IMG/VR virus record: IMGVR_UViG_3300042910_000004
DNA: 42,328 nt
Reading direction: 5' to 3' (one strand)
From: a virus
Shown here: piece by piece, positions 4,108 through 14,910 of the stretch
How positions within the stretch are numbered: the stretch's first letter is position 1
How the letters are laid out: each line of letters begins with the position of its first letter
Program-made: the position numbers and the translations under genes
The notes under the pieces: generated by a model
What the model saw: only the letters and a program-made list of their open reading frames with translations
The model's database searches: none
What the model was told of the DNA's origin: nothing

Positions 4108-5135
4108 CTATAGGTAACATATTTGCCTTTCTTTTCTGACCTTATTTTACCTTCCTCTTTGTATTCACGAATAACAACTTGGAACAAGGTTAAGGACAAA
4201 CCTAAACTTTTTGCAAGTTGAAGAGCCTCTTCTCTTGATAAAGCAAAATCATCTTCATTTTTAATTGCTGACTCAAATTCTTTTTTGAACTTTTCTTTAA
4301 GTGTTTGTGAAATGGAGTAGTCTATACAGGTTATGTTTTCCCAATCTGTAAAATCAAACTTTAGATTTTTGATTTCTGGGCCAAATCTGTTTTTGTCTTG
4401 GCTTAACATAATTTCAAAACCATCTTTGCCCATAATTCTGATAATGGTATAGACCATATCAGCAGAAGCCCCAATATCTGAAGAACCTCGAGAATAAAGA
4501 GATTTAGGTTTTTTGAAAATTTCTTTCTCATTGTTTTCGTAAGTTGAGCCTTTACTCCAATGATGGGTGAAAATGAAAGTTATTCCTTGATTACTAAAGT
4601 ATTTCCTAATGTTTTCGGTTAAGCGTCTGATATCAGAAGATTTGTTTTCATCGCCTTTGAAAAATTTTCTTAGTGGGTCAACGACTAAAATGTTAAAACC
4701 TCGTTTTTTTAGAAGATAGGATAGTTGTGCTATTTGGATATCATCATCTAAAAATATCGTTTCATTGCCATAATAGAAATTTTCATTCTGAAAGTTCAAA
4801 AGTTTCAATTTTTCGCCTATAACTTCTTTAGGGTCTTCTCCTAAATAGCAAATCTTGTAATTGCCAGGGAAAACCCTGAAATGATAAAATTGGCCTTCCA
4901 AAATAAGTTTGCAAAAATAAAGAAGTAAGGTTGTTTTTCCTGAAGCATAAAAACCTGAAAAAAGATTTATACCATTCCTGGCAATTATGTTTTCGACAAT
5001 AAATTTCTCCTCTGGATTAAAAGAAAGTCTCTTTAACTCTTCAGCATTTAAAAATTTTTCAACAATTTCATCGACTTCTTTGGCTTTTTCTATTGGACTT
5101 TTTGCTATGTCTTCTAATCTTCTGAAATCAGACAT
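4089..5135 (-). CDS. RecA-like P-loop ATPase (AAA_25/RepA-DnaB-like), probable replicative helicase
   Basis: Walker A GFYASGKT, Walker B ILVVDPL, FIFTHHWSK. Adjacent to the primase-type zinc-finger gene. Confidence 0.7.
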   Translation of the reverse strand: MSDFRRLEDIAKSPIEKAKEVDEIVEKFLNAEELKRLSFNPEEKFIVENIIARNGINLFSGFYASGKTTLLLYFCKLILEGQFYHFRVFPGNYKICYLGEDPKEVIGEKLKLLNFQNENFYYGNETIFLDDDIQIAQLSYLLKKRGFNILVVDPLRKFFKGDENKSSDIRRLTENIRKYFSNQGITFIFTHHWSKGSTYENNEKEIFKKPKSLYSRGSSDIGASADMVYTIIRIMGKDGFEIMLSQDKNRFGPEIKNLKFDFTDWENITCIDYSISQTLKEKFKKEFESAIKNEDDFALSREEALQLAKSLGLSLTLFQVVIREYKEEGKIRSEKKGKYVTYRWIGEI

Positions 5136-5907
5136 ATTTGTTGTAAAGATAATTAACGGCTTCGTAAAAATCCATTTTATAGAGGTTTTTAATGAAGTTA
5201 ACTACATTACCTCCTCTTTGACAGCCAAAACAATAGAAAGAGTTAGTCTTCCTATAGACAGCAAAAGAAGGATTTGTATCATTGTGGCCTGGCAATTGGC
5301 ATTTTATTAATGCTGGTTCTTTAGAGGGTATTTTTACCCCAAATTCGTCTTCAACAACCCTCTCAATATCGAGTAATAAAACTTTTCTGACCTTATTTTT
5401 GAAATTTTCTCTTTCTTCAGTGAAATCTGTTTTTTCAGGTATTTTTTTGTAAGTTTCTAAAAATTCGATAAGAGATGATAAAGTTTCAATTCTTTCAATC
5501 AAAAAGTTGTATCTTTTTGAGAATTCGTGCCAAATAGGAAGGCCTTTTTCTCTTGCTTCCTCCAATTTTTTAATGTTTTCCCAAAGAAAAACATCTAAAG
5601 CCTCCTTTTCTTTGATGAAATTTTTTAAGTTTTCTCGTAGTGATTCAAGAATATATTCGGGATTGTTCATTAAGTCAGGAAAGAATTCAACCATAACCTG
5701 AACATCGTTTTTCTTTTCAAAATCCCTATTTTCTTCCTTCCATTTCTTGTATTCTTCGTCCAAAATCTTTATGTAATTAAGAACTTCGGCTAAGTCTTCT
5801 TCTGACAGAAACTTAGAACCTATTGTCTCGATATCCTCTAAATCAAAACCCCCATAAACATACAAATCCACTAGGAATTGCTTTCCAAAAAGCAAAGTTG
5901 TATTCAT
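5128..5907 (-). CDS. Protein with a C-terminal DnaG-type CHC2 zinc finger and no TOPRIM/AEP domain
   Basis: CQLPGHNDTNPSFAVYRKTNSFYCFGCQRGGNVVNFI near the C-terminus; helical acidic N-terminal 190 aa. Confidence 0.7.
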   Translation of the reverse strand: MNTTLLFGKQFLVDLYVYGGFDLEDIETIGSKFLSEEDLAEVLNYIKILDEEYKKWKEENRDFEKKNDVQVMVEFFPDLMNNPEYILESLRENLKNFIKEKEALDVFLWENIKKLEEAREKGLPIWHEFSKRYNFLIERIETLSSLIEFLETYKKIPEKTDFTEERENFKNKVRKVLLLDIERVVEDEFGVKIPSKEPALIKCQLPGHNDTNPSFAVYRKTNSFYCFGCQRGGNVVNFIKNLYKMDFYEAVNYLYNKYV

Positions 5908-5916
5908 TATGATAAC

Positions 5917-5945
5917 ATTATAAACGTTTTGAAAGAAAATGTCAA
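5917..5945 (-). promoter_or_regulatory. Consensus sigma70 promoter TTGACA-N17-TATAAT (leftward early)
   Basis: Minus strand reads TTGACAttttctttcaaaacgttTATAATgttatcataATG; only 9 nt lie between the -10 box and the ATG. Confidence 0.75.
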
Positions 5946-6010
5946 GATTTGGCTAGTACTTGACAAAAGACAATTTCACTCTTGCAGTTCCTAGATACAA
6001 TTGAAAAATT

Positions 6011-6200
6011 ATGTAATTGATAGAAAAAATATAGGAAAAATAAGGAAAAAATAATAACACCATAATAATTACACTGTGTAATTGTTCTCGTAGAGTGCAA
6101 TTGTTGTGATGTTATTATTTTTGCTCGATTTTTCGAGGTTTTTGCCATCAATTACACAATTTTTCTTGTGTCTCAGGAGGGGGTAGGGGTTGTGTAATTG
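6011..6200. promoter_or_regulatory. Array of GTGTAATTG / CAATTACAC operator-like boxes
   Basis: Boxes at 6012-6019, 6067-6083 (perfect 17-bp palindrome AATTACACtGTGTAATT), 6095-6103, 6149-6159 and 6190-6200. Confidence 0.7.
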
Positions 6201-6280
6201 TTAACCTTTAATTGCAATCATTAAAATTTCATTATAGTTTCAATGAAAGTTTAAGCCACAATTTATCAACATCAACACTC

Positions 6281-6310
6281 TTGACAATCAACCATTCAGT
6301 ATGTTATAAT
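6281..6310 (+). promoter_or_regulatory. Sigma70 promoter TTGACA-N18-TGtTATAAT (rightward early)
   Basis: ttgacaatcaaccattcagtatgttataat. Confidence 0.7.
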
Positions 6311-6330
6311 GGTGTTGAAGTTAAGAATTC

Positions 6331-6358
6331 AAGGTCGATAATTAAAAAAGACAAAATA
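6331..6358 (+). promoter_or_regulatory. Representative gene-start junction cassette AAGGTCGATAATTAAAAAAGACAAAATA-ATG
   Basis: One of more than 20 similar cassettes. This one lies inside the predicted 5' UTR downstream of the 6281-6310 promoter. Confidence 0.6.
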
Positions 6359-6595
6359 ATGGGAAACGAAACTTATCTTGGTTTGTTTGAAATTGCTAAA
6401 AGGCTAAACATTACTAAAAATCAAGCAAAATGGTTTGCTAGAAGGTATATCAACGAAATTAGATTTCAAAAAAGAAACATAAAAGACAAACTTTACAACT
6501 TTGAAGACTTTAAAAGGGTCGTAGAAGAAAGAAAAAAACATTGGCAACTTAAAACAGAGTCGTTATTAAAGAAGAACAAAAAAAATGGCCTATAA
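6359..6595 (+). CDS. Small HTH DNA-binding protein (78 aa)
   Basis: Start moved to the ATG after the cassette. LFEIAKRLNITKNQAKWFARR is helix-turn-helix-like. First gene of the rightward operon. Confidence 0.55.
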   Translation: MGNETYLGLFEIAKRLNITKNQAKWFARRYINEIRFQKRNIKDKLYNFEDFKRVVEERKKHWQLKTESLLKKNKKNGL

Positions 6596-6911
6596 GGAAA
6601 TTTCTGGTTTTGACGAAGAGAGAAAACCAATTAAGGAATTTTGGAGACCTAAAAATGTTGGAGACTCCTTTGAAGGCATTCTTAGAAAAGTTATACCTAA
6701 TAGGGGAAAGTATAAAAACAGAAATATGTATCTTTTTGAAAACGAAAATGGAGAAATTATAGGAATTATGGGTAATACCGTCCTAGACAAAATCTTCAAC
6801 AAAAACCTCTCTATTTGTCTTAACAAAAAAGTTAAGATTGAGTATCACGGTGTAGGTCTAAACAAAAACAATGTTGAATATCAACTTTTTAAAGTTTTCG
6901 TTGAAGAATAA
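6585..6911 (+). CDS. Hypothetical protein (108 aa)
   Basis: ORF in an operon with an 11-nt overlap. Confidence 0.6.
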   Translation: MAYKEISGFDEERKPIKEFWRPKNVGDSFEGILRKVIPNRGKYKNRNMYLFENENGEIIGIMGNTVLDKIFNKNLSICLNKKVKIEYHGVGLNKNNVEYQLFKVFVEE

Positions 6912-6946
6912 TCAATAGGTCAAAATTAAACATTAAAAATGAAAAA

Positions 6947-7318
6947 ATGTTAAAATCAAAAATTTTAATAATTTGGAAACCAACCCCCGAAAAAGAAAGA
7001 GAAGACGTTGTTTATGTAGATGTTACTCAAGATTTAATGAAAGAAAAAATTGTTTATGACTATTTGAGAAAATTCTACGAAGACGATATTCCTGATAATG
7101 AATTTTTAAAAGAGTATGTAGTTAAGGAAATTAGAAATTTGGAGATAGTTTTTTTATGTGATTTATGTGGGAAAGAAGTCAAAACGCTAAAAAGAATATC
7201 CCTTGCTTGCTCTGATTATGAAGTTTGTGAAAAATGTTTAGAAGAAATAATAAACAACGTCAACTTAATTAAAAAGGAAAACTTCAAATGGATAACCAAT
7301 ATTCTTGGGAACAAATAG
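6947..7318 (+). CDS. Zinc-ribbon protein (123 aa)
   Basis: CDLCGKE ... CEKC; cassette upstream (ggtca 6918-6922). Confidence 0.6.
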   Translation: MLKSKILIIWKPTPEKEREDVVYVDVTQDLMKEKIVYDYLRKFYEDDIPDNEFLKEYVVKEIRNLEIVFLCDLCGKEVKTLKRISLACSDYEVCEKCLEEIINNVNLIKKENFKWITNILGNK

Positions 7319-7599
7319 AAGAAAGAGCAAAAAGAAAGGAGCAGCAAATTCAAAAACTCCATTATTCGAAGGAAAGACAAGTTATCAAAACATCAATTTT
7401 CAATCAAGCGCAAGAATGGGCTAGACTTCAAGCAGAGCTTGGTCTTCCTGACGATGAAATTGAAAGGCTCATCAAAAAATGGCTTAAAAAACTTTACTAC
7501 GAATACAAACTATGGGATGAAGAATTTGACGAACTTTACTTTCAAAACATCAAAGAAAAAAAAGAAAGGTCAGAATTAAAAAACAAAAATGAAAAATGA
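7288..7599 (+). CDS. Hypothetical protein (103 aa)
   Basis: ORF in an operon, overlapping its neighbours. Confidence 0.5.
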   Translation: MDNQYSWEQIEERAKRKEQQIQKLHYSKERQVIKTSIFNQAQEWARLQAELGLPDDEIERLIKKWLKKLYYEYKLWDEEFDELYFQNIKEKKERSELKNKNEK

Positions 7600-8039
7600 A
7601 AGATGAAAAATTCGAAAAAATCTATGACTTTATAGACGAAGTTATGGATGTCACTGATGATTTGATTGACAAATGGATACTCGATTGGGAAATTGCTGTT
7701 GATTACGAAGCCAGAGAAGAAGTTGAAAAAGAATATGGAATGCCTTGGTGGAAAGTTTTAAGCGGAGACGATGATTATAATCCAGAAAATAACGACGAAG
7801 AAAATGAAAAAATTGTTGAACTTAAAGATTGGAATGATAAGAATTTTAGGTATTTTAAGGTTGTTCCTTCTGAAAAATCTAAATTAGAATTAGGTCTTCC
7901 TAATGATTTTTACTACATCGTTATTGTTGATTTGAAAAGAAATAAGATATCTTGCGATTGTTTGGGTAATTTAACAAATGGTTATTGCAAACATATCCAA
8001 ATGGTCGCAGAAAAATTAAAAATTAATTATCGAAAATGA
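7596..8039 (+). CDS. SWIM zinc-finger protein
   Basis: CDCLGNLTNGYCKH fits the CxCxnCxH pattern. Confidence 0.65.
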   Translation: MKDEKFEKIYDFIDEVMDVTDDLIDKWILDWEIAVDYEAREEVEKEYGMPWWKVLSGDDDYNPENNDEENEKIVELKDWNDKNFRYFKVVPSEKSKLELGLPNDFYYIVIVDLKRNKISCDCLGNLTNGYCKHIQMVAEKLKINYRK

Positions 8040-8713
8040 AAAAGAAAATAGAAAAAGTTGAATGGACAGAAATTAGAAAAAGAGAAATCAAATATCTCAT
8101 AGGACACTATTACAGAATTCAAAAACACAGGATTGCTATGGGTAACCAAATTTTTGCCCTTAATCAACAGAAAAATCCTGATGCCCCCATTAATCATTTC
8201 TACAAGAGAATTTTGGGGATTGAAAAAGAGATAAAAAAATACCTGAAAAACAGCCTAAAAGGAGTTCCTATATGGGAAGAATGGTTGAAAAAAGTCAAGG
8301 GAATTGGTGAAGTTTTAGGATGTGCTCTAATTGCCTTAATTGATATTAAAAAAGCAAAACACCCCTCAAATATCTGGAGTTATTTTGGATTAGCGCCTAA
8401 TCAAAAAAGAAAAAGGGGAGAAAGGGTAAATTATAATCCTTTGGCAAAGACAATTGCTTGGAAAATTGCCGATTGTTTTATCAAGTCGAAATCTCCGTAT
8501 AGAAAGGTTTATGAAGTAAGAAAAGCATACGAACAAGAAAAACATCCTGAATTTACAAAAGGACACATTGATATGAGGGCAAAAAGATATATGGTGAAAA
8601 GATTTCTTGTTGATTTATATGTCAAATGGAGAGAATTAGAAGGATTACCAGTATCAAAGCCTTATGTAGTTGATGTTTTAAAACATCAGATGGAAGATAT
8701 GATTGTGGAATAA
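8036..8713 (+). CDS. HhH protein resembling only the C-terminal (Transposase_20-like) half of IS110-family transposases
   Basis: VKGIGEVLGCALIALIDIKKAKHPSNIWSYFGLAPNQKRKRGE...NPLAKTIAWKIA resembles the IS110 C-terminal domain. I see no DEDD/RuvC-like N-terminal domain. Confidence 0.5.
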   Translation: MKKKIEKVEWTEIRKREIKYLIGHYYRIQKHRIAMGNQIFALNQQKNPDAPINHFYKRILGIEKEIKKYLKNSLKGVPIWEEWLKKVKGIGEVLGCALIALIDIKKAKHPSNIWSYFGLAPNQKRKRGERVNYNPLAKTIAWKIADCFIKSKSPYRKVYEVRKAYEQEKHPEFTKGHIDMRAKRYMVKRFLVDLYVKWRELEGLPVSKPYVVDVLKHQMEDMIVE

Positions 8714-8716
8714 AAT

Positions 8717-8869
8717 TTTTAGCCAAACGAAGGTAGAAAACCTTATCAAACAAGCGAGCCATTAATTTCAAGTAACCCTTAAGTAAATAGCGAGCCAAAT
8801 TTTACCAGAAACCCCGATGAGGTGAGCGAGCCAGAATTATATATCAACCCCAACCTTTCAAGCGAAAAT
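8717..8869. repeat. Five-unit, 36-bp phased repeat array (AGCGAGCCA ... AACCC)
   Basis: agcgagcca at 8753, 8789 and 8825; degenerate copies at 8717 and 8861. A second AACCC box sits 21-22 nt into each unit. No ORF in this region. Confidence 0.85.
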
Positions 8870-8921
8870 TAAAAACCAATGTTAAAATTAAAAAAGTCGG
8901 CATTAAGGTCAATCCTTAAAA

Positions 8922-9374
8922 ATGAAAACCTCGCCGTCTAAAAAAGCCAAGATTTTGCTTATATTTTTGGCAGTCTTGGTCTTAACAACATCGATATGGC
9001 TTGTAAAAAATAATATCAAAAAAGTGAAAAGTTCATTAGTCCAGTTGTTTATTATAGAAAAACAGGATGAAAGTTATTATAGCGAATTGGCAGAGAAATT
9101 GATAATGTGCGAAAGTTCGGATAATTGTCTGGCAATTGTCCCTTTTGATGGTGGGTCGGCAAGTCTCGGTTGTCTCCAATGGAAAATTGAAACATTTAGG
9201 GAATATGCCGAAAAATACGGAGTAATTGGAAAGAACGCAAGCTGGAATTATGTCGCTACCATTATATGGGACAAAAAAGTCAACAAATATCTAGCAATTC
9301 AAATATTAAAAAATGAGCCAGAAAAAGCAAAACAATTATGGTATAACTGCTGGAAGAAAATCAATAAAAAATGA
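8922..9374 (+). CDS. Membrane-anchored SLT-like lytic transglycosylase
   Basis: N-terminal TM stretch ILLIFLAVLVLTTSIWLV; CESSDNCLAIVPFDGGSASLGCLQ resembles the ES...GLMQ motif. Confidence 0.55.
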   Translation: MKTSPSKKAKILLIFLAVLVLTTSIWLVKNNIKKVKSSLVQLFIIEKQDESYYSELAEKLIMCESSDNCLAIVPFDGGSASLGCLQWKIETFREYAEKYGVIGKNASWNYVATIIWDKKVNKYLAIQILKNEPEKAKQLWYNCWKKINKK

Positions 9375-9664
9375 ACAACCAAATCTACCAAACAAATGAT
9401 ACCCCAGAAGCAGCTTATCTTGTTTCCTGTGGGTTTAACTATAAAGAGTTATCTTTTATTGACGACGAAATAATCACTTTTATTTTTGACGCAAATAAAG
9501 AACTTTTAGAAGAAGTTAAAAAATTCAAAGCAGGGAAAGCACTTGTTGAACCCACAAAATTTCTCTATAACTACAAGAAATTAATATCTGAAGTTATTTC
9601 TTTAAAGAAAAAATATAGATGGCAAAAACCAAAAATTTATCGTCCATTCAATTCTAAATGGTAA
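9371..9664 (+). CDS. Hypothetical protein (97 aa)
   Basis: ORF with ATGA overlap to the upstream gene. Confidence 0.6.
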   Translation: MNNQIYQTNDTPEAAYLVSCGFNYKELSFIDDEIITFIFDANKELLEEVKKFKAGKALVEPTKFLYNYKKLISEVISLKKKYRWQKPKIYRPFNSKW

Positions 9665-9682
9665 GAAATTAACATCAACCAT

Positions 9683-9710
9683 TTGACTTTTCAGAAAACT
9701 TTAATAAAAT
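9683..9710 (+). promoter_or_regulatory. Sigma70-type promoter TTGACT-N16-TAAAAT in front of the foreign island
   Basis: ttgacttttcagaaaactttaataaaat. Confidence 0.5.
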
Positions 9711-9748
9711 TTTTTTCAAGAACCCTAAAATAGTAAGGAGATGAGAAA

Positions 9749-10660
9749 ATGCGGAAGGAAAAAATCATCTCGCAGTTGGCTGCGGAGTTAATCAATCTTG
9801 CGGACGAAATCGTTCCTCGTATCTCCCCTGTATCACTTAAGCAAGCAAAATATGGAAAGGGGGATGAGGAAGTTTTCGTCCTGCTTTTGAGCGACTTTCA
9901 AGTTGGTATCAAGACTTCGACTTACAACACCTCCGTATTCGAGGAGCGGTTCTCCCGCTTGACCCGTAACGTTCTCAAAGTTCTTGCTCTTCATCGTCGG
10001 TCCCACCCAGTCAAGAAGTTGGTTGTCTTTTTGCTGGGGGATTTGGTCCATAACGAGGAGGTGGCTCGCTTCCTGTCTATCGATGAGCTGGATGTAGTGG
10101 TCCACGAACAAGTCTTCCAATACGCCATCCCCGTCCTACAAGGCTTCTTCGTCGAGATGCTACGAAACTTCGAGAAAGTCGAGGTTTATTGCGTTCGTGG
10201 AAACCACGGCCAGTTCTCGAAGCTACACGCAACTACCACCAACATTGACGACATCATCTACCACTTCCTTCGTGCTTCGTTCTCCCGTGAGAAGCGTATC
10301 AAGTTCCACATCGCAGAAACCTTCTATCAAATCGCTAAAGTCTATCGATGGAAGTTCCTCCTCGTTCACGGAGATACTATCCGAATGCACTATCAAATCC
10401 CCTGGTATGGTATCACCACTCGAGTGATGCGCTGGCAAAACTCCATCGAAGATTTCGACTTCGCATGCATTGGTCACTTCCACTCCTTCTCCGTTCTTGA
10501 TTGGGGAGGGAAAACCATCGTTATCAACGGAACCTTCCTTTCCGACGATGATTGGAGCAAGCAACGTCTCGGCCTAACATCTTCAGTGTGTCAGGTCCTT
10601 CTCGGAGTTCATCCAAAGCGTGGTATCTCCTTCATCCGCAAAATCTTTCTGACGAAATGA
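9749..10660 (+). CDS. Calcineurin-like metallophosphoesterase
   Basis: Motifs LLLSDFQVG, LLGDLVHNEE, VRGNHG, LVHGD and GHFH. Canonical SD taAGGAGatgagaaaATG. C-ending codon bias unlike the rest of the phage. Confidence 0.85.
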   Translation: MRKEKIISQLAAELINLADEIVPRISPVSLKQAKYGKGDEEVFVLLLSDFQVGIKTSTYNTSVFEERFSRLTRNVLKVLALHRRSHPVKKLVVFLLGDLVHNEEVARFLSIDELDVVVHEQVFQYAIPVLQGFFVEMLRNFEKVEVYCVRGNHGQFSKLHATTTNIDDIIYHFLRASFSREKRIKFHIAETFYQIAKVYRWKFLLVHGDTIRMHYQIPWYGITTRVMRWQNSIEDFDFACIGHFHSFSVLDWGGKTIVINGTFLSDDDWSKQRLGLTSSVCQVLLGVHPKRGISFIRKIFLTK

Positions 10661-10673
10661 AAGGAGGTGTGCT

Positions 10674-11324
10674 ATGTTCTCCCAAACTATCAAGCCTATC
10701 TTCCGTATCAATAAGCGTCAGAAGCGCCGAAAGCAGTTTAAGGCTGCTCCTCCTATCAAGGCATATCAGTTCATCCCTCCACTTGTCCGCAGTTTCGTCT
10801 GTTCTGTCATCGTTGAAACTGAAAAAGAATACGCAGTTGGAGGGGGATGCCTTACTACAATCGGGCTTCTGACTGCCGCTCATAACCTTGAAGGTGACAT
10901 CAAAAACATCTATGCTGACTTCTGCATCAACGAGTTCGTTGGTTTCACCATCCAGCTTCGAGAAGCAATCTGCTTTAAGGCTCTTGACCTTGCTGTCTTC
11001 GAAGCTCCGCAGCTAACCTTCCCAGGCTTAAAGCCAGCAAAGGTAATCATCGACAACGTCAATGAAATCAAGAAAATCATCTCCGAAAATCCCATCTACT
11101 CCTTTGGATGTCCTCAAGGCATCTTTGGCTTGACCTGGGAAGCGCTTCCCGTGTATCTCGACAACAGCTGTATCTATACTATCGGGTTTGGCTGGTTCGG
11201 AGTTTCAGGGGGCCCCATCTTTGCAGTAATCGACAATGAGCCAATCGTTTTAGCAATCAACTCCGAGCTGGCTTTCCCGACAATGACTCTGCTTTCCAGG
11301 CTAATCAACCTGAAGGCATCGTAG
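10674..11324 (+). CDS. Trypsin-like (S1/chymotrypsin-fold) serine protease
   Basis: LLTAAHNL (His), LDLAVF (Asp), GVSGGPIF (Ser). Canonical SD aAAGGAGGtgtgctATG. Confidence 0.8.
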   Translation: MFSQTIKPIFRINKRQKRRKQFKAAPPIKAYQFIPPLVRSFVCSVIVETEKEYAVGGGCLTTIGLLTAAHNLEGDIKNIYADFCINEFVGFTIQLREAICFKALDLAVFEAPQLTFPGLKPAKVIIDNVNEIKKIISENPIYSFGCPQGIFGLTWEALPVYLDNSCIYTIGFGWFGVSGGPIFAVIDNEPIVLAINSELAFPTMTLLSRLINLKAS

Positions 11325-11350
11325 GGGAGGCTCTGTCCTCCCCTTTTTCT
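11324..11350 (+). terminator. Rho-independent terminator closing the island
   Basis: GGGGAGGctctgtCCTCCCCttttt, overlapping the TAG stop. Confidence 0.8.
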
Positions 11351-11485
11351 GTTAATAACTTGTTAATTCAAGTTAAAAAATCCTTTTAAAATCTATATTT
11401 TTTGAAAATGTCAAATTTTTAAAAAATTTTGAAAAACTTTTTAAAAATTTAAATAGGTCGGAAATTAATCAATTAAAAATGAAAA

Positions 11486-11692
11486 ATGAAAAATATTTGT
11501 AAGTTTTGTAAAAGTGAGTTTTCAACTGAAAAACCACAAAAAGACTTCATATGCTTTGAATGTTTATCAATGGGAGCAGACAAGGATTTATTCACATATC
11601 TCAAAAATCGGGCAATGAGACTTATGGCAAAAATTGATTGGAAAATAGACGAAATTAAAGAAGTCGTAGATAATTTTCTAAAAAATGAATAA
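11486..11692 (+). CDS. Zinc-ribbon protein (68 aa)
   Basis: CKFCKSEF ... CFEC; cassette upstream (ggtcg 11456-11460). Confidence 0.55.
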   Translation: MKNICKFCKSEFSTEKPQKDFICFECLSMGADKDLFTYLKNRAMRLMAKIDWKIDEIKEVVDNFLKNE

Positions 11693-12026
11693 GAAATACA
11701 TAAAAGGGAGAAACTTTGAATACCAAATTAACAAAATATTGAGTAAAAGTGGGTTTCAAACGATACGTTCTGCTGGTTCTCACGGATTATTCGATATTAT
11801 AGCCTTCAAAAAACTTGGTGACGAAATAATGACTATTTTCATACAAGCAAAATCATACAAAAAATCATCGAAATTAGATACTCGTAAAATTCTAGAAAAT
11901 ATACTAAAAAAATTAAGTATTTTACCACAAGAAAATAACTTTTTCCATTCAAAAATTGGAAGGAAAATAAACGTTTTTTACTATGTTTTTAACCCTTATA
12001 CAATTTTTGCTGTTTTTGCCAAATAA
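11685..12026 (+). CDS. Hjc-type (archaeal-like) Holliday junction resolvase homologue
   Basis: KGRNFEYQINKILSKSGFQTIRSAGSHGLFDIIAF...FIQAKS parallels Hjc KG..ERE...GF..VRSAGS..D..A...IEVK. Confidence 0.6.
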   Translation: MNKKYIKGRNFEYQINKILSKSGFQTIRSAGSHGLFDIIAFKKLGDEIMTIFIQAKSYKKSSKLDTRKILENILKKLSILPQENNFFHSKIGRKINVFYYVFNPYTIFAVFAK

Positions 12027-12031
12027 ACCCC

Positions 12032-12105
12032 CTCTAAAATCGCGTGAGACAAAAGATTTTTTCTTGGAGGTATTGTAATACTAGCCCTTAAAAAATCTTT
12101 TGTCT
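12032..12105. repeat. Structured repeat element E1: 30-nt box shared with 41751-41780, plus a nested hairpin
   Basis: ctctaaaatcGCGtgagacaaaagattttt matches 41751-41780 at 27/30 nt. Perfect 16-bp outer stem 12047-12062 / 12090-12105 around a small inner hairpin. Confidence 0.8.
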
Positions 12106-12186
12106 GGTGGCAAAATTTCTAAACTTTTATGTTAAATCGAATGTAAAAACCCTATAAAAATCGAAGTTTTTTAAACCATTAAAAAA

Positions 12187-12222
12187 CCCCCTGGAAGTTT
12201 TCTCCTCCAGGGGGTTTATTTT
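12187..12222. terminator. Bidirectional rho-independent terminator between convergent operons
   Basis: aaaaaaCCCCCTGGAagttttctccTCCAGGGGGtttatttt. Confidence 0.8.
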
Positions 12223-12238
12223 ATGATTAGTTAGGGGT

Positions 12239-12292
12239 TTACCTTGAAGCTTTTTTACCCCTTCTTGCGGAACTTCTTGCTCTTCTTGCCAT
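12239..12292 (-). CDS. Possible 17-aa arginine-rich peptide (MARRARSSARRGKKASR)
   Basis: Hand-translated ORF after GGTCGAATTAAGAAGTAATTAAGAA-ATG; last ORF before the terminator. Confidence 0.2.
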   Translation of the reverse strand: MARRARSSARRGKKASR

Positions 12293-12299
12293 TTCTTAA

Positions 12300-12611
12300 T
12301 TACTTCTTAATTCGACCTAAAACTCCGTTATAAAGGCTTCTTTTGCCTAAATCCCAAAGTCCACTTGTATAAAGACCAATAAAAACACCAGAGGCAAAAG
12401 CCAATAAAGGATTTTCAATATAGCCGTAAAAATAAGACCAAAGAGCCAAACTAACTCCCCAAAAAACCGAAACTAATGGGGCATAATCATTAAAATTCTG
12501 TATTCTCTTACTTAAAATTCTTTTAACTACTTCTGTCATTCCCATAACTAAAAGGACAACGAAATGAAAACTTAAAAGTTGGTTTGCAGTTAATACCCAG
12601 CTTCCTTCCAT
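12300..12611 (-). CDS. Holin
   Basis: 103 aa with about three hydrophobic helices and a charged C-terminus; lies near the endolysin in the lysis cassette. Confidence 0.7.
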   Translation of the reverse strand: MEGSWVLTANQLLSFHFVVLLVMGMTEVVKRILSKRIQNFNDYAPLVSVFWGVSLALWSYFYGYIENPLLAFASGVFIGLYTSGLWDLGKRSLYNGVLGRIKK

Positions 12612-12639
12612 TTTTTAGATTTTTTTAATCAACGACCTT

Positions 12640-12774
12640 TTAAAATTGAAAATCCATTTCGCTAAATTCTTCTTCTTCGCTTTCTCTTTCTTCTTCTAAT
12701 TCTTCTTCTTCAGTCTCAACGGGTTTTTCTTCAAGATTTACATCTTCTTCAAAAAGGTATTCTGTATCTACCAT
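12640..12774 (-). CDS. Possible 44-aa extremely acidic peptide (MVDTEYLFEEDVNLEEKPVETEEEELEEERESEEEEFSEMDFQF)
   Basis: Hand-translated. Cassette upstream (cgacc 12797-12801) and another cassette right after its stop. Confidence 0.4.
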   Translation of the reverse strand: MVDTEYLFEEDVNLEEKPVETEEEELEEERESEEEEFSEMDFQF

Positions 12775-12792
12775 TTTTCTAAAATTTTTTAA

Positions 12793-14910
12793 TTATCGAC
12801 CAAAAATTTCATTAAATTTTTTAATCGTATTCAAATCTGCTGTTCCAGTTACTAATAACCCATAATTTTTTTGAAAATCTCTAACGGCTTGACGGGTAAT
12901 GCCTCCATAATAGCCCGTACACTCTTGATTAGCAGGAAAATATCCTAACCATTGAAGACCAATTTGAAGTTTTACTACTTCTGATCCTCTATCTCCTACA
13001 TTGAGATAATTAGCATTTATAAACATCTTTGGTTTATTAATCTTTTGAGGTTCGTATTTGAAATCAACAAGATAAACTCCCAAAACAACTCCATTTTTAA
13101 ATTGTTCTTCGTTGATAATTCCTAATCCATTAATACCCCAATCATCTCTTCCCCAAGAATTTTGAAAAATTAATGCTTTTTTGCCATTGTAAAGAGTATA
13201 ATCAGTTGCACAGTTATGTACCGCAACATTTTCTGCCATATAAGAATTATCATTTTCAACTTCCAAATTGAAAACTTTTCCGACATATTTTATTTTTTCT
13301 ATCTTTTTTATTCTTTTTAATTCACCTATTTTGTGATAAAAGTTCCTCGTTTTTATTTTATTGGCATATGGGGAAATGAGAAAATCGAATCCTCCACTAC
13401 TTTTAATTCTTCTCGTTATGTTATGGGCTGGTTTTCTATGAAAGACACTATAAACCATATTTAGTTTTTGCAAAATAAGTTGTATCTGTAATGCTAATTT
13501 TTCATCTGAAGTAAAAAGTCTCCAATAAATATTTTGATTTTTATTTCCTATTTGAATGGAACCATCTCCATCTATCCATCCTTCTAATAATGACCTTAGG
13601 ACATCTTTAGGTGAGTTAAAAATAATTCTATAATCTAATCTTTTTTTGTTGGGCCTTCCAGCAATTTTAGCAAACCAATTCGCTATTTTTGTGCTATAAA
13701 AAATAACCTGAACTGCTTTATTCCTTGGGGAATAATAAAATTTGGGTTCTAAATTAAATTTACTTTTCATTATTCGAACAACCTTCTCTATTATTTTACT
13801 ATCTTTTTCTCTATTTAAAGAAAATCTAACAGCAGCAAATCCTTTATAATACTTTCCGTTCACAAAATTCCTTTTCAGATTACCATCTGCCAAATAAAGA
13901 CCTACTAAATAAGCAATATCTTCATCAAATAAAGCATAATTTCTATCTAATTGGGTTATTGGAGAAGTAAAATTTGCCAACAAAAAGTCTTTTATTTTCA
14001 AATCTTCGGCTTTTTTCCACATAAATCCCCTTGAGATAGCATAATCCTTTCTTACATATTGAGAACCATTTATAACATAAAAAGGATGTTCTGGGGTTGC
14101 TAAAATGGGTCTTATTTGATTCTTGGCATATATTTTAAATAAATAACCCTCATAATCTCTTTCTAAAACCCTACTAACCCTTTGCCATCTTCCTTTGTGC
14201 GTTAAAACATAATCACCTGCTTTAATTTCAGTTATTTTTTTATAACCATTCTTTGTGAGAATTAATGTATCTGGATGGAAACAAATAGCATGTCCGAATA
14301 TTCCGTTTTTATCCAAAACTACTTCAGGTTTAGAAAATCCTCCTTGATTAAATCTCACCCCTAAAAGAATTCCCTTTTTTGTTTGCTCTATTATCCCAGC
14401 AATTACATCAATATCGAGTGGAAGAAAAACATAAGAATTTGCCTTATAAATTTGTGCTACCCATCTAACATTAGGAGTTTCATCATCTCTCCTTCTCATT
14501 GCGTTTTCATTTAATCCTATAGATGGCATCTGCTGTTCTAAACAGGTTCCTTCTTTTCTGGCAATTTCTAAAGCCTGTAGATAATACATTCCTCCATCTG
14601 GTTCAACATATCCACGAGAATAAATAAATCTTGCAGATAAAATCTCAAATTTCCCCTCTTCTAAATAGTTTTCTATCCCAAGAGCAAGAGCAAGTGAATG
14701 AGCAACGCAACTTCCCGATGTTGATTGGTTTCTAATTGGTTCAAATTTTCTCCATTCTGATGGTTTTTTCTCAATCCAATTAGGAGATGGATATGATTTA
14801 AAGATTTCTTCTGTGTGATAATTTCTTTCGTCAAGTTGTTCTCTTTCATCTCCAACCCATCCATAACCAAATTGCTCTTTTCTCAAAAATCTTTTGAAAA
14901 ATTTCCACAT
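12793..14910 (-). CDS. Endolysin: papain-like (C1) cysteine peptidase plus PG_binding_1 domain, interrupted by an intein
   Basis: QSTSGSCVAHS (Cys motif); GHAI (His motif); NSWGRDDWG after the intein; C-terminal GDRGSEVVKLQIGLQWLGY...ITRQAVRDFQ. Holin close by. Confidence 0.8.
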   Translation of the reverse strand: MWKFFKRFLRKEQFGYGWVGDEREQLDERNYHTEEIFKSYPSPNWIEKKPSEWRKFEPIRNQSTSGSCVAHSLALALGIENYLEEGKFEILSARFIYSRGYVEPDGGMYYLQALEIARKEGTCLEQQMPSIGLNENAMRRRDDETPNVRWVAQIYKANSYVFLPLDIDVIAGIIEQTKKGILLGVRFNQGGFSKPEVVLDKNGIFGHAICFHPDTLILTKNGYKKITEIKAGDYVLTHKGRWQRVSRVLERDYEGYLFKIYAKNQIRPILATPEHPFYVINGSQYVRKDYAISRGFMWKKAEDLKIKDFLLANFTSPITQLDRNYALFDEDIAYLVGLYLADGNLKRNFVNGKYYKGFAAVRFSLNREKDSKIIEKVVRIMKSKFNLEPKFYYSPRNKAVQVIFYSTKIANWFAKIAGRPNKKRLDYRIIFNSPKDVLRSLLEGWIDGDGSIQIGNKNQNIYWRLFTSDEKLALQIQLILQKLNMVYSVFHRKPAHNITRRIKSSGGFDFLISPYANKIKTRNFYHKIGELKRIKKIEKIKYVGKVFNLEVENDNSYMAENVAVHNCATDYTLYNGKKALIFQNSWGRDDWGINGLGIINEEQFKNGVVLGVYLVDFKYEPQKINKPKMFINANYLNVGDRGSEVVKLQIGLQWLGYFPANQECTGYYGGITRQAVRDFQKNYGLLVTGTADLNTIKKFNEIFGR
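13213..14283 (-). mobile_element. Intein with LAGLIDADG homing endonuclease (357 aa, residues 210-566 of the lysin ORF)
   Basis: Begins CFHPDTLILT, has TPEH, LVGLYLADGN and LLEGWIDGDGS, and ends NVAVHN followed by a +1 Cys. The codons at both junctions were checked on the sequence. Confidence 0.85.

Follow-up and report, generated by a model that had tools for sequence, protein, structure and literature searches.

A two-gene cassette of a putative nuclease and a protease with a GC-rich codon dialect in a clade of AT-rich uncultivated phages

The DNA analysed here, IMG/VR virus record IMGVR_UViG_3300042910_000004 (42,328 nucleotides, the whole of which is called the window below), is phage-like with ≈33% G+C. 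Its terminase, structural and lysis genes lie on the minus strand and it has two divergent early operons. At the 3′ end of the early/replication operon, adjoining the lysis genes, there is a block of two genes on the plus strand (≈9683–11349) with the order promoter-like site, Shine-Dalgarno (SD) site, nuclease gene, SD site, protease gene and terminator. Gene 1 (9749–10660, +) encodes a 303 aa metallophosphoesterase (MPE) of PHROG 284, as judged from Pfam, PHROG and its predicted structure. Gene 2 (10674–11324, +) encodes a 216 aa stand-alone chymotrypsin-fold serine protease, as judged from family conservation and predicted structure. Other genes close to the pair in the window encode a DUF5659 protein, a zinc-ribbon protein and an Hjc-like resolvase. 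The pair belongs to a family of cassettes, new here, in which a constant sensor-less protease is combined with a nuclease that can be swapped. The cassettes have autonomous signals and a persistently GC-rich dialect and occupy this position in a clade of AT-rich uncultivated phages.

A preliminary description of the window, made from its sequence, had presented the block as a self-contained moron carrying its own expression signals, and these signals could be located again. The sigma-70-like promoter candidate TTGACT-N16-TAAAAT is found at 9683–9710 (+) and agrees with the consensus at 10 of 12 positions. Promoter-like matches numbered 27, against 20.5 ± 4.5 in shuffled sequences, with no enrichment in the AT-rich region. 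Since they are not above the shuffles, this candidate says little by itself. The first SD site, AAGGAG (9735–9740, +), is located 8 nt 5′ of the gene 1 start codon, and the second, AAGGAGGTG (10661–10669, +), falls within the 13 nt gap that precedes gene 2. These had been called the only two strong SD sites. Both are present, but one or two of the other 40 window genes have a comparable site. The intrinsic terminator (GGGGAGG-loop-CCTCCCC followed by TTTTT, 11323–11349, +) has a hairpin of 8 pairs, 6 of them G-C, at 11323–11344 and is the top-ranking terminator-like site within 5800–12800.

Both promoter hexamers, both SD sites and the terminator stem are kept in two sibling genomes (L004 and L011) that differ from the window by 12–15% of nucleotides, while the terminator loop varies. 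The intergenic region 5′ of the block is 96% identical to L004 and 84.5% identical to L011, compared with 85–89% for the coding flanks. Judged from these predicted signals the block appears to be one autonomous transcription unit, and with the 13 nt gap verified the two genes behave as the unit they had been described as. The alternative frames of the block contain eight overlapping open reading frames (ORFs) of 50 aa or more, in line with the spurious overlapping ORFs noted earlier. A mobile element of the insertion sequence (IS) or att type was ruled out, as no convincing direct or inverted repeats flank the block. Neither the block nor its flanks had an Rfam match at gathering thresholds, and a structured RNA was likewise ruled out.

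The block (9749–11324) has 48.1% G+C, with 48.5% for gene 1 and 47.5% for gene 2, compared with 32.4% for the rest of the window. Only the interval 10001–11000 reaches 47–49% in a sliding analysis, and all other 500 nt windows are at or below 39%. Most of the difference lies at synonymous sites. G+C at third codon positions (GC3) is 0.59 and 0.55 for the two genes, whereas the 40 other genes have a mean of 0.234 (standard deviation 0.048, maximum 0.35), which gives z ≈ 7. The fraction of C at third positions is 0.39 and 0.38 as opposed to 0.11 elsewhere. The compositional break and the C-ending codons proposed in the preliminary description are therefore clear, and the block is foreign in the sense that its codon usage differs from that of the rest of the phage. 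The difference amounts to a distinct codon dialect that goes beyond a mere preference for C-ending codons. Arg CGN and AGR codons are used 26:1 in the block and 64:484 elsewhere, and Leu CTN and TTR codons 39:10 and 427:664, respectively. Ile is encoded by ATC in 96% of cases (16% elsewhere), Lys by AAG in 68% (21% elsewhere) and Phe by TTC in 78% (20% elsewhere).

Gene 1 is a calcineurin-like phosphoesterase, as had been suggested. It matches Pfam PF00149 Metallophos above the cutoff (23.9 bits, cutoff 21.5, E 6.6e-5) and contains the motifs S48-D49-F-Q51, G97-D98, G151-N152-H153, H207-G-D209 and G242-H243-F-H245. The GD, GNH, HGD and GHxH motifs are invariant in an alignment of 32 sequences of the MPE family. 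Motif I reads S-D-x-Q in 24 of these, the window protein included, and S-D-x-H in 8. The D-F-Q in place of D-x-H, which had been regarded as unusual, is thus real as far as the Gln is concerned, but it is the norm of the clade and not a quirk of gene 1. Family members with the motif I Gln have H, Q or E three positions after the motif II Asp, and those with the motif I His mostly D, S, T or G. The corresponding residues in gene 1 are Q51 (9899–9901) and H101 (10049–10051), and their covariation in the alignment may represent a compensatory change in the metal site.

A further match was obtained with the PHROG profile phrog_284, annotated as "exonuclease" (E 1.2e-40), in which residues 9–301 of the protein align to profile positions 101–394 of 398. 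Relatives of gene 1 were found by tblastn in 262 deposited phage records. Members of PHROG 284 include the "putative DNA repair nuclease" of Streptomyces phage Dagobah, the "exonuclease" of Clostridium phage phiCD211 and Staphylococcus phage 6ec, and gp41 of Bacteroides phage BU2-2. Gene 1 shares the catalytic motifs of these proteins but is without the ≈100-residue N-terminal part of the profile and has Gln for His in motif I, as in its near relatives. It also differs in its pairing with a protease, which was not seen in the deposited phage genomes examined. In phage BU2-2 the family member has an SSB/annealing protein gene on one side and HNH plus PolA genes on the other, and in other deposited phages it adjoins terminase genes. 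The preliminary description had conceded that its reading would fall if the genes were ordinary conserved core genes of the phage lineage with a known replication or repair role. Gene 1 comes close to this as a member of a widespread "exonuclease" family, whose annotation is by homology. A scan of species-representative genomes for the MPE gave a single match, on a contig of a Parcubacteria metagenome-assembled genome (L038, 41% identity), which is a weak hint at the host.

The AlphaFold model of gene 1 has a predicted local distance difference test score (pLDDT) of 88 and a predicted template modelling score (pTM) of 0.90. The best Foldseek match was to DP1, the proofreading-exonuclease subunit of archaeal PolD (E 1e-10, template modelling (TM) score ≈0.55), followed by the Pol zeta B-subunit, Vps29, LpxH and Mre11 (E 1e-7). 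Gene 1 has a calcineurin-like metal-binding core in common with them. Sequence identity to DP1/Mre11-type structures is 12–14% and the target-normalised TM score is 0.34–0.42, where the aligned DP1-type targets have 400–460 aa and gene 1 has 303 aa. A single-sequence search of PDB sequences gave chance-level matches only. In contrast to PolD DP1 and Mre11/SbcD, no SbcC/Rad50 partner gene was found in the window or adjoining the MPE in the related loci examined, and neither an OB-fold domain nor a DP2 or catalytic polymerase partner was found for gene 1 in the same places. By its profile match and predicted structure gene 1 is best described as an MPE of the phage "exonuclease" family with a DP1/Mre11-like fold, the exonuclease label being given by homology.

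The best-studied functional analogue is gp47 of mycobacteriophage Bxb1, an MPE that is needed for phage DNA replication, has a weak 3′–5′ exonuclease activity and moonlights as a recombination directionality factor (PMC11795197). Like gene 1 it is a small phage MPE with a predicted DP1/Mre11-like fold, encoded in a replication gene region. It belongs to phrog_221, however, and is not partnered by a protease. The window, for its part, yielded no large serine integrase. Homology between the two at the sequence level was rejected (hhalign probability 0.5%, different family).

Gene 2 belongs to a family for which an exhaustive search gave only 16 representatives. Of the catalytic triad H70/D105/S178, D105 is invariant, while H70 and S178 (the latter in GxSGG) are at least 90% conserved among these representatives, and an FGCPxG..W motif is also conserved. 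Gene 2 itself has no Pfam match even at E ≤ 1 and none in PHROG. However, 13 of the 16 family members match Pfam Trypsin_2 (best E 4e-8), and the family profile matches S1 proteases in the PDB (E ≈ 3e-5), with the His, Asp and Ser regions aligning to plasmin, kallikrein, SplE, V8 and Deg proteases. Searches with gene 2 gave no tblastn match in deposited phage genomes and only chance-level matches among PDB sequences, and the block as a whole had no nucleotide match in deposited phage genomes. The AlphaFold model (pLDDT 83, pTM 0.84) gave 600 Foldseek matches in the PDB at E ≤ 1e-3, those listed being S1-type proteases with TM ≈0.6, and it also resembles viral serine proteases in BFVD. It contains a basic N-terminal extension of ≈45 aa, and the rest is the protease domain only, with no sensor domain and no signal peptide. 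The trypsin fold, the full triad and the basic extension that had been read from the sequence are all upheld. On family conservation and the model, gene 2 is predicted to be a small, cytoplasmic, sensor-less chymotrypsin-fold (PA-clan, S1-like) serine protease.

Two cellular homologs of the protease (P0042 and P0049) were found, both without the cassette layout. P0042 has an intact triad and is located at 4880–5774 of a cellular contig (L043) with rpS11, rpS13 and apgM, with 33.8% G+C and no adjacent nuclease gene. The contig comes from the same JGI sample as the sibling phage L004, and tandem repeats of the GTCTGCATA type lie upstream of the gene, which may be either a host copy or a domesticated one. 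P0049 is the most divergent family member and has lost the catalytic Ser and His. Its gene (1731–2435 of the cellular contig L040, 23% G+C) lies divergently beside the exonuclease VII genes xseA/xseB.

The block is also present in three sibling genomes, namely L004, L011 (L014, L023 and L028 stand for the same IMG contig) and L015, which is a fragment. Its nucleotides are 88–89% identical to those of L004 and 84–85% to those of L011, and the flanking genes are the same in this respect. As the block has diverged to the same extent as its flanks, it is older than the common ancestor of the siblings. The pair recurs in a relative at greater distance (L005/L006), with protein identities of 70% and 45%, and diverged versions of the cassette fill the same slot across the phage clade. 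A one-off recent insertion, for which presence or absence in related phages had been put forward as a check, is not compatible with these observations, and no empty slot was seen in any relative examined. The contig that includes L023 and L028, IMG/VR UViG_3300005851_000004 (41,736 bp), has the MPE gene at both ends. The repeated gene points to overlapping ends and hence to a complete genome of ≈41.3 kb that assembles as a circle and is a close relative of the window.

The loci of all protease-family members for which one could be retrieved were inspected, which gave 10 phage-type contexts. In all 10 the gene immediately 5′ of the protease gene encodes a nuclease, so that the co-occurrence as a pair in other phages that had been proposed as a check is indeed found. 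The nuclease is not always the same. It is an MPE in two contexts (the window group and L005/6), a Cas4-like PD-(D/E)xK protein in six (L013/19, L033, L034/35, L036/37, L041/42 and L044/45) and a DnaQ-like RNase_H_2 exonuclease in two (L012/18 and L016), where a small Cys-rich zinc-finger-like ORF follows. The Cas4-like protein matches phrog_1706 (3.6e-10) and weakly PDDEXK_1, and its alignment, inspected by eye, shows D..ExK and QxxxY motifs and conserved Cys residues. Several of the protease loci are syntenic with the window and have the 150 aa protein, DUF5659, the Hjc-like resolvase and the convergent holin/lysin genes in common.

The eight MPE- and Cas4-type cassettes have one layout. An AT-rich promoter-like region and a strong SD site precede the nuclease gene, a second strong SD site lies in the gap of 13–30 nt before the protease gene, and a GC hairpin and T-run follow. 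Boundaries were read for 10 diverged cassettes, of which 9 (all except L012) have a strong SD site between nuclease and protease, and a GC hairpin with T-run was found 3′ of the protease gene in L005, L013, L033, L034, L036, L041 and L044. The content of the slot varies between MPE plus protease, Cas4 plus protease and MPE plus small ORFs. In one of the relatives with an MPE in the slot (L008, 33% G+C) a TnpB/OrfB_IS605 gene (Cas12f-like TNB) with 55% G+C lies at 10609–11676, ≈1.7 kb downstream of the slot, and is a further GC-rich import at the same hotspot.

Hendrix and colleagues reportedly used the term phage moron for an autonomous unit of promoter, gene and terminator that deviates in composition and is inserted between phage genes. 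Classical morons typically consist of one gene, are expressed from prophages and vary in their presence. The block resembles them in having its own promoter-like site and terminator, predicted but conserved in siblings, and a composition unlike that of the conserved genes on either side. It differs in consisting of two genes, in being conserved clade-wide in diverged forms and in its position inside an early operon. What stands of the earlier moron assignment is the self-contained unit with promoter-like site, two SD sites and terminator; the unique moron has given way to an old clade-wide cassette.

The GC excess tracks the cassette irrespective of the nuclease type. G+C fractions of nuclease, protease and flank are 0.53, 0.51 and 0.33 for L034, 0.49, 0.49 and 0.31 for L036, 0.44, 0.41 and 0.29 for L033, 0.41, 0.41 and 0.28 for L013, and 0.37, 0.34 and 0.21 for L041. 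The pair in L005/L006 has ≈35% G+C with flanks of 23%. Similar islands are formed by the MPE where it occurs without the protease (0.45 vs. 0.31 in L007, 0.45 vs. ≈0.33 in L030 and 0.41 vs. 0.31 in L009). In the MPE- and Cas4-type cassettes the GC island coincides exactly with the gene pair, but in L044 only the nuclease gene is clearly raised. The dialect with CGN, ATC, AAG and CTN codons is common to the cassettes with graded strength. In relatives with ≈39% G+C the MPE equals its background.

We favour an import of the cassette from a GC-richer gene pool before the three siblings diverged, with residence times that differ between lineages. The graded strength of the dialect resembles such differing residence times. 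On the other hand, no GC-rich donor genome or context was found for any family member, and the excess recurs over lineages whose proteins are only 30–70% identical. Both facts would also fit with a GC-rich dialect that is maintained by selection, either on mRNA stability or structure or through a translation regime with SD sites and rare codons. Polarised substitutions between the siblings point in the same direction at first sight, as the block shows no net decay (75 GC>AT vs. 64 AT>GC changes, p = 0.40) and fewer GC>AT changes than would be expected if G+C simply decayed to 32% (p = 0.002). However, the same polarisation of the flanks (11486–13209 vs. L004 and L011) gave 47 GC>AT and 79 AT>GC changes (p = 0.006), which is unexpected at 30% G+C and may reflect either an artefact of parsimony or a true upward drift in GC. 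Because of this implausible excess the test is unreliable for judging amelioration.

Translational selection for the dialect was considered and rejected. The capsid-region genes, which are the most highly expressed genes of the phage, have a GC3 of ≈0.2, the rpS13 gene of the putative host uses the AT dialect, and G-ending and CGN codons are enriched in the block too. A host-derived composition was rejected as well, as the cellular contig from the sample of the sibling phage has 33.8% G+C. With the AT dialect in both rpS13 and the capsid region, the island cannot be put down to host mimicry or to translational selection. Given also the relatives with ≈39% G+C, in which the MPE matches its background, we consider selection on GC to be a somewhat unlikely alternative to import. 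The persistence of the island over lineages with proteins that are more than 50% diverged is in itself of interest, since simple amelioration and translational selection both fail to explain it.

DNA is the likely substrate of gene 1, since three unrelated DNA nuclease folds interchange in the slot, the predicted fold is DP1/Mre11-like and PHROG 284 members occur in replication modules. For the same reasons hydrolysis of cyclic nucleotides is unlikely. That the two genes form a functional pair is suggested by the protease invariably adjoining a nuclease, by the shared transcription unit and by the compositional island being confined to the pair. We therefore propose, with a probability of roughly 0.45, that nuclease and protease act as a coupled DNA-nuclease/protease module. 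The anatomy, the folds and catalytic motifs, the recurrence, the swapping of nucleases, and the compositional island and its age can be read directly at the loci, whereas DNA as substrate, the coupling and the role of any proteolysis are inferred. In such a module the protease would be the constant component and the upstream gene a swappable DNA nuclease, which in the window would be a Mn/Mg-type metallophosphoesterase with a DP1/Mre11-like fold. The nuclease might act on DNA ends in phage replication or recombination, or on host DNA, with the protease working alongside it. As to the direction and purpose of any proteolysis, the most likely logic would be that the protease controls the nuclease by proteolysis (licensing or timing) or strips proteins from the DNA substrate.

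The nearest known logic is that of the linked protease-effector modules of prokaryotic immunity, in which a trypsin-, caspase- or subtilisin-like protease is encoded next to a metallo-β-lactamase (MBL) nuclease, α/β-hydrolase, Pepco, EACC1 or MPE-like effector (bioRxiv 10.1101/2025.11.14.688446). One of their effectors is an MBL-fold nuclease zymogen that the adjacent trypsin-like protease activates, MPE-like effectors are listed but uncharacterised, and the proteases carry fused sensor domains (STAND/Avs and others) and are encoded in cellular genomes (bioRxiv 10.1101/2025.11.14.688446). The cassettes share the effector gene adjoining a trypsin-like protease gene and the swappable effectors, with three nuclease folds in the 10 contexts. 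They differ in that the protease has only 216 aa, is sensor-less and is phage-borne, and in that MPE orthologs without a protease have no extra segment. If the two genes do work together, the cassette would represent a minimal phage-encoded protease-effector logic, a compact system for the control of a nuclease by a protease, and would provide a first functional handle on a widespread phage metallophosphoesterase family. A bolder version, in which the cassettes are an undescribed mobile module of sensor-less protease and swappable DNA nuclease, passed between phages as an autonomous unit with its own codon dialect and translation signals, gated by proteolysis, used in phage–phage or phage–host conflict and forming a viral counterpart of the bacterial immune modules, seems doubtful to us.

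Several observations weigh against the coupled module. At least six relatives (L007, L008, L009, L024, L026 and L030) have the MPE but no protease in the slot of the cassette, and small unknown ORFs follow it there. These protease-less orthologs are 49–63% identical and have no indel compared with the protease-linked copies. The MPE can thus do without the protease and has no obvious zymogen insert, and a zymogen model is weakened since there is no missing or extra segment. In addition, the protease contexts all belong to a single clade of related phages with common lysis and early genes, so the adjacency could be inherited synteny; the gene 2 protease has no sensor domain, unlike those of the characterised protease-effector modules; the promoter at 9683–9710 is a consensus match only; and no GC-rich donor genome was found, as mentioned above. 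The protease-less MPE and the single clade speak in particular for the two genes being independent neighbours, in which case the MPE would be a replaceable recombination or replication exonuclease and the protease would serve an unrelated purpose such as cleavage of host proteins in takeover or processing of phage proteins. The MPE family is also widespread in phage replication and packaging neighbourhoods without proteases. Were this so, we would be left with an ordinary phage exonuclease beside an orphan protease. However, mere synteny does not readily account for the protease never being found in phages without a nuclease directly upstream (10 of 10) across three unrelated folds, nor for the short gap, internal SD site, single terminator and pair-confined GC island that the eight MPE- and Cas4-type cassettes also keep, and we regard independence as rather unlikely.

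A defence-type latent toxin moron, in which the protease senses a competing phage or stress and unleashes the nuclease for superinfection exclusion or abortive infection, would make sense of the effector-upstream-of-protease order and the swappable effectors, as these resemble described defence modules with MPE-like effectors among them. The moron-like autonomous signals and the foreign composition would fit as well. Gene 2 moreover matches the N-terminal region of LmuA in PADLOC (PDLC03855, E 1.4e-9, profile positions 10–109 of 425), a model that presumably represents a protease-type Lamassu effector. The likeness to Lamassu stays at the level of this one domain, however, as gene 2 is half the length of LmuA and no LmuB (SMC-like) or LmuC gene lies beside the cassette. 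PADLOC found nothing for the MPE, and a pattern-based genome scan for the protease gave no match and thus no cellular copies in defence islands. With a protease that has no sensor, a cassette inside an early operon and not in a lysogeny region, and neither an integrase nor a repressor detected in the window that would suggest lysogeny, such a toxin is improbable. No DNA polymerase or SbcC/Rad50 was detected in the window either. The preliminary description had instead suggested counter-defence, with the MPE hydrolysing immune second messengers of CBASS, Thoeris or type III CRISPR and the protease cleaving a host defence factor. The MPE superfamily does include cyclic-nucleotide phosphodiesterases, and the cassette is accessory-like and compositionally foreign. 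Yet the nearest structural relatives of gene 1 are DNA exonucleases and polymerase B-subunits and not cyclic-nucleotide phosphodiesterases, and the place of the MPE is taken in sister cassettes by Cas4-like or DnaQ-like nucleases, which point to DNA and leave the degradation of cyclic nucleotides by gene 1 without support. The enzymes known to counteract CBASS and Pycsar adopt different folds (2H and MBL). Counter-defence of this kind is accordingly the least probable of these readings, and we give it very little credence.

Some further features of the window were observed. Two perfect sigma-70 consensus promoters (12 of 12 positions) are arranged back to back between the early operons at 5917–5945 (−) and 6281–6310 (+). 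Downstream of the cassette terminator, the AT-rich intergenic region 11345–11485 has a sibling identity of 94% and 88%, above the 84–88% of the neighbouring coding sequence, and may contain promoter or regulatory sites for the next genes. Most window genes have no SD site, and their starts follow an A-rich leader of the type TTAAAAA(TG)AAAA, for instance upstream of 1243–1851, 6947–7318, 7596–8039 and 11486–11692. The scarcity of SD sites suggests a host that uses SD-independent initiation.

A 225 aa protein encoded at 8036–8713 (+) matches phrog_4285 "transposase" (2.3e-40), with only the C-terminal Transposase_20 (IS110-family) domain being matched. The endolysin gene at 12793–14910 (−), with a weak Peptidase_C1 match and PG_binding_1, is split by an intein (insertion ≈13210–14287) that carries a LAGLIDADG homing endonuclease (Intein_splicing 2.3e-11, LAGLIDADG_3 5.3e-12). 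The lysins of the siblings L004 and L011 have ≈348 aa and no intein, and their alignment to the window shows a gap of ≈1.08 kb at that point.

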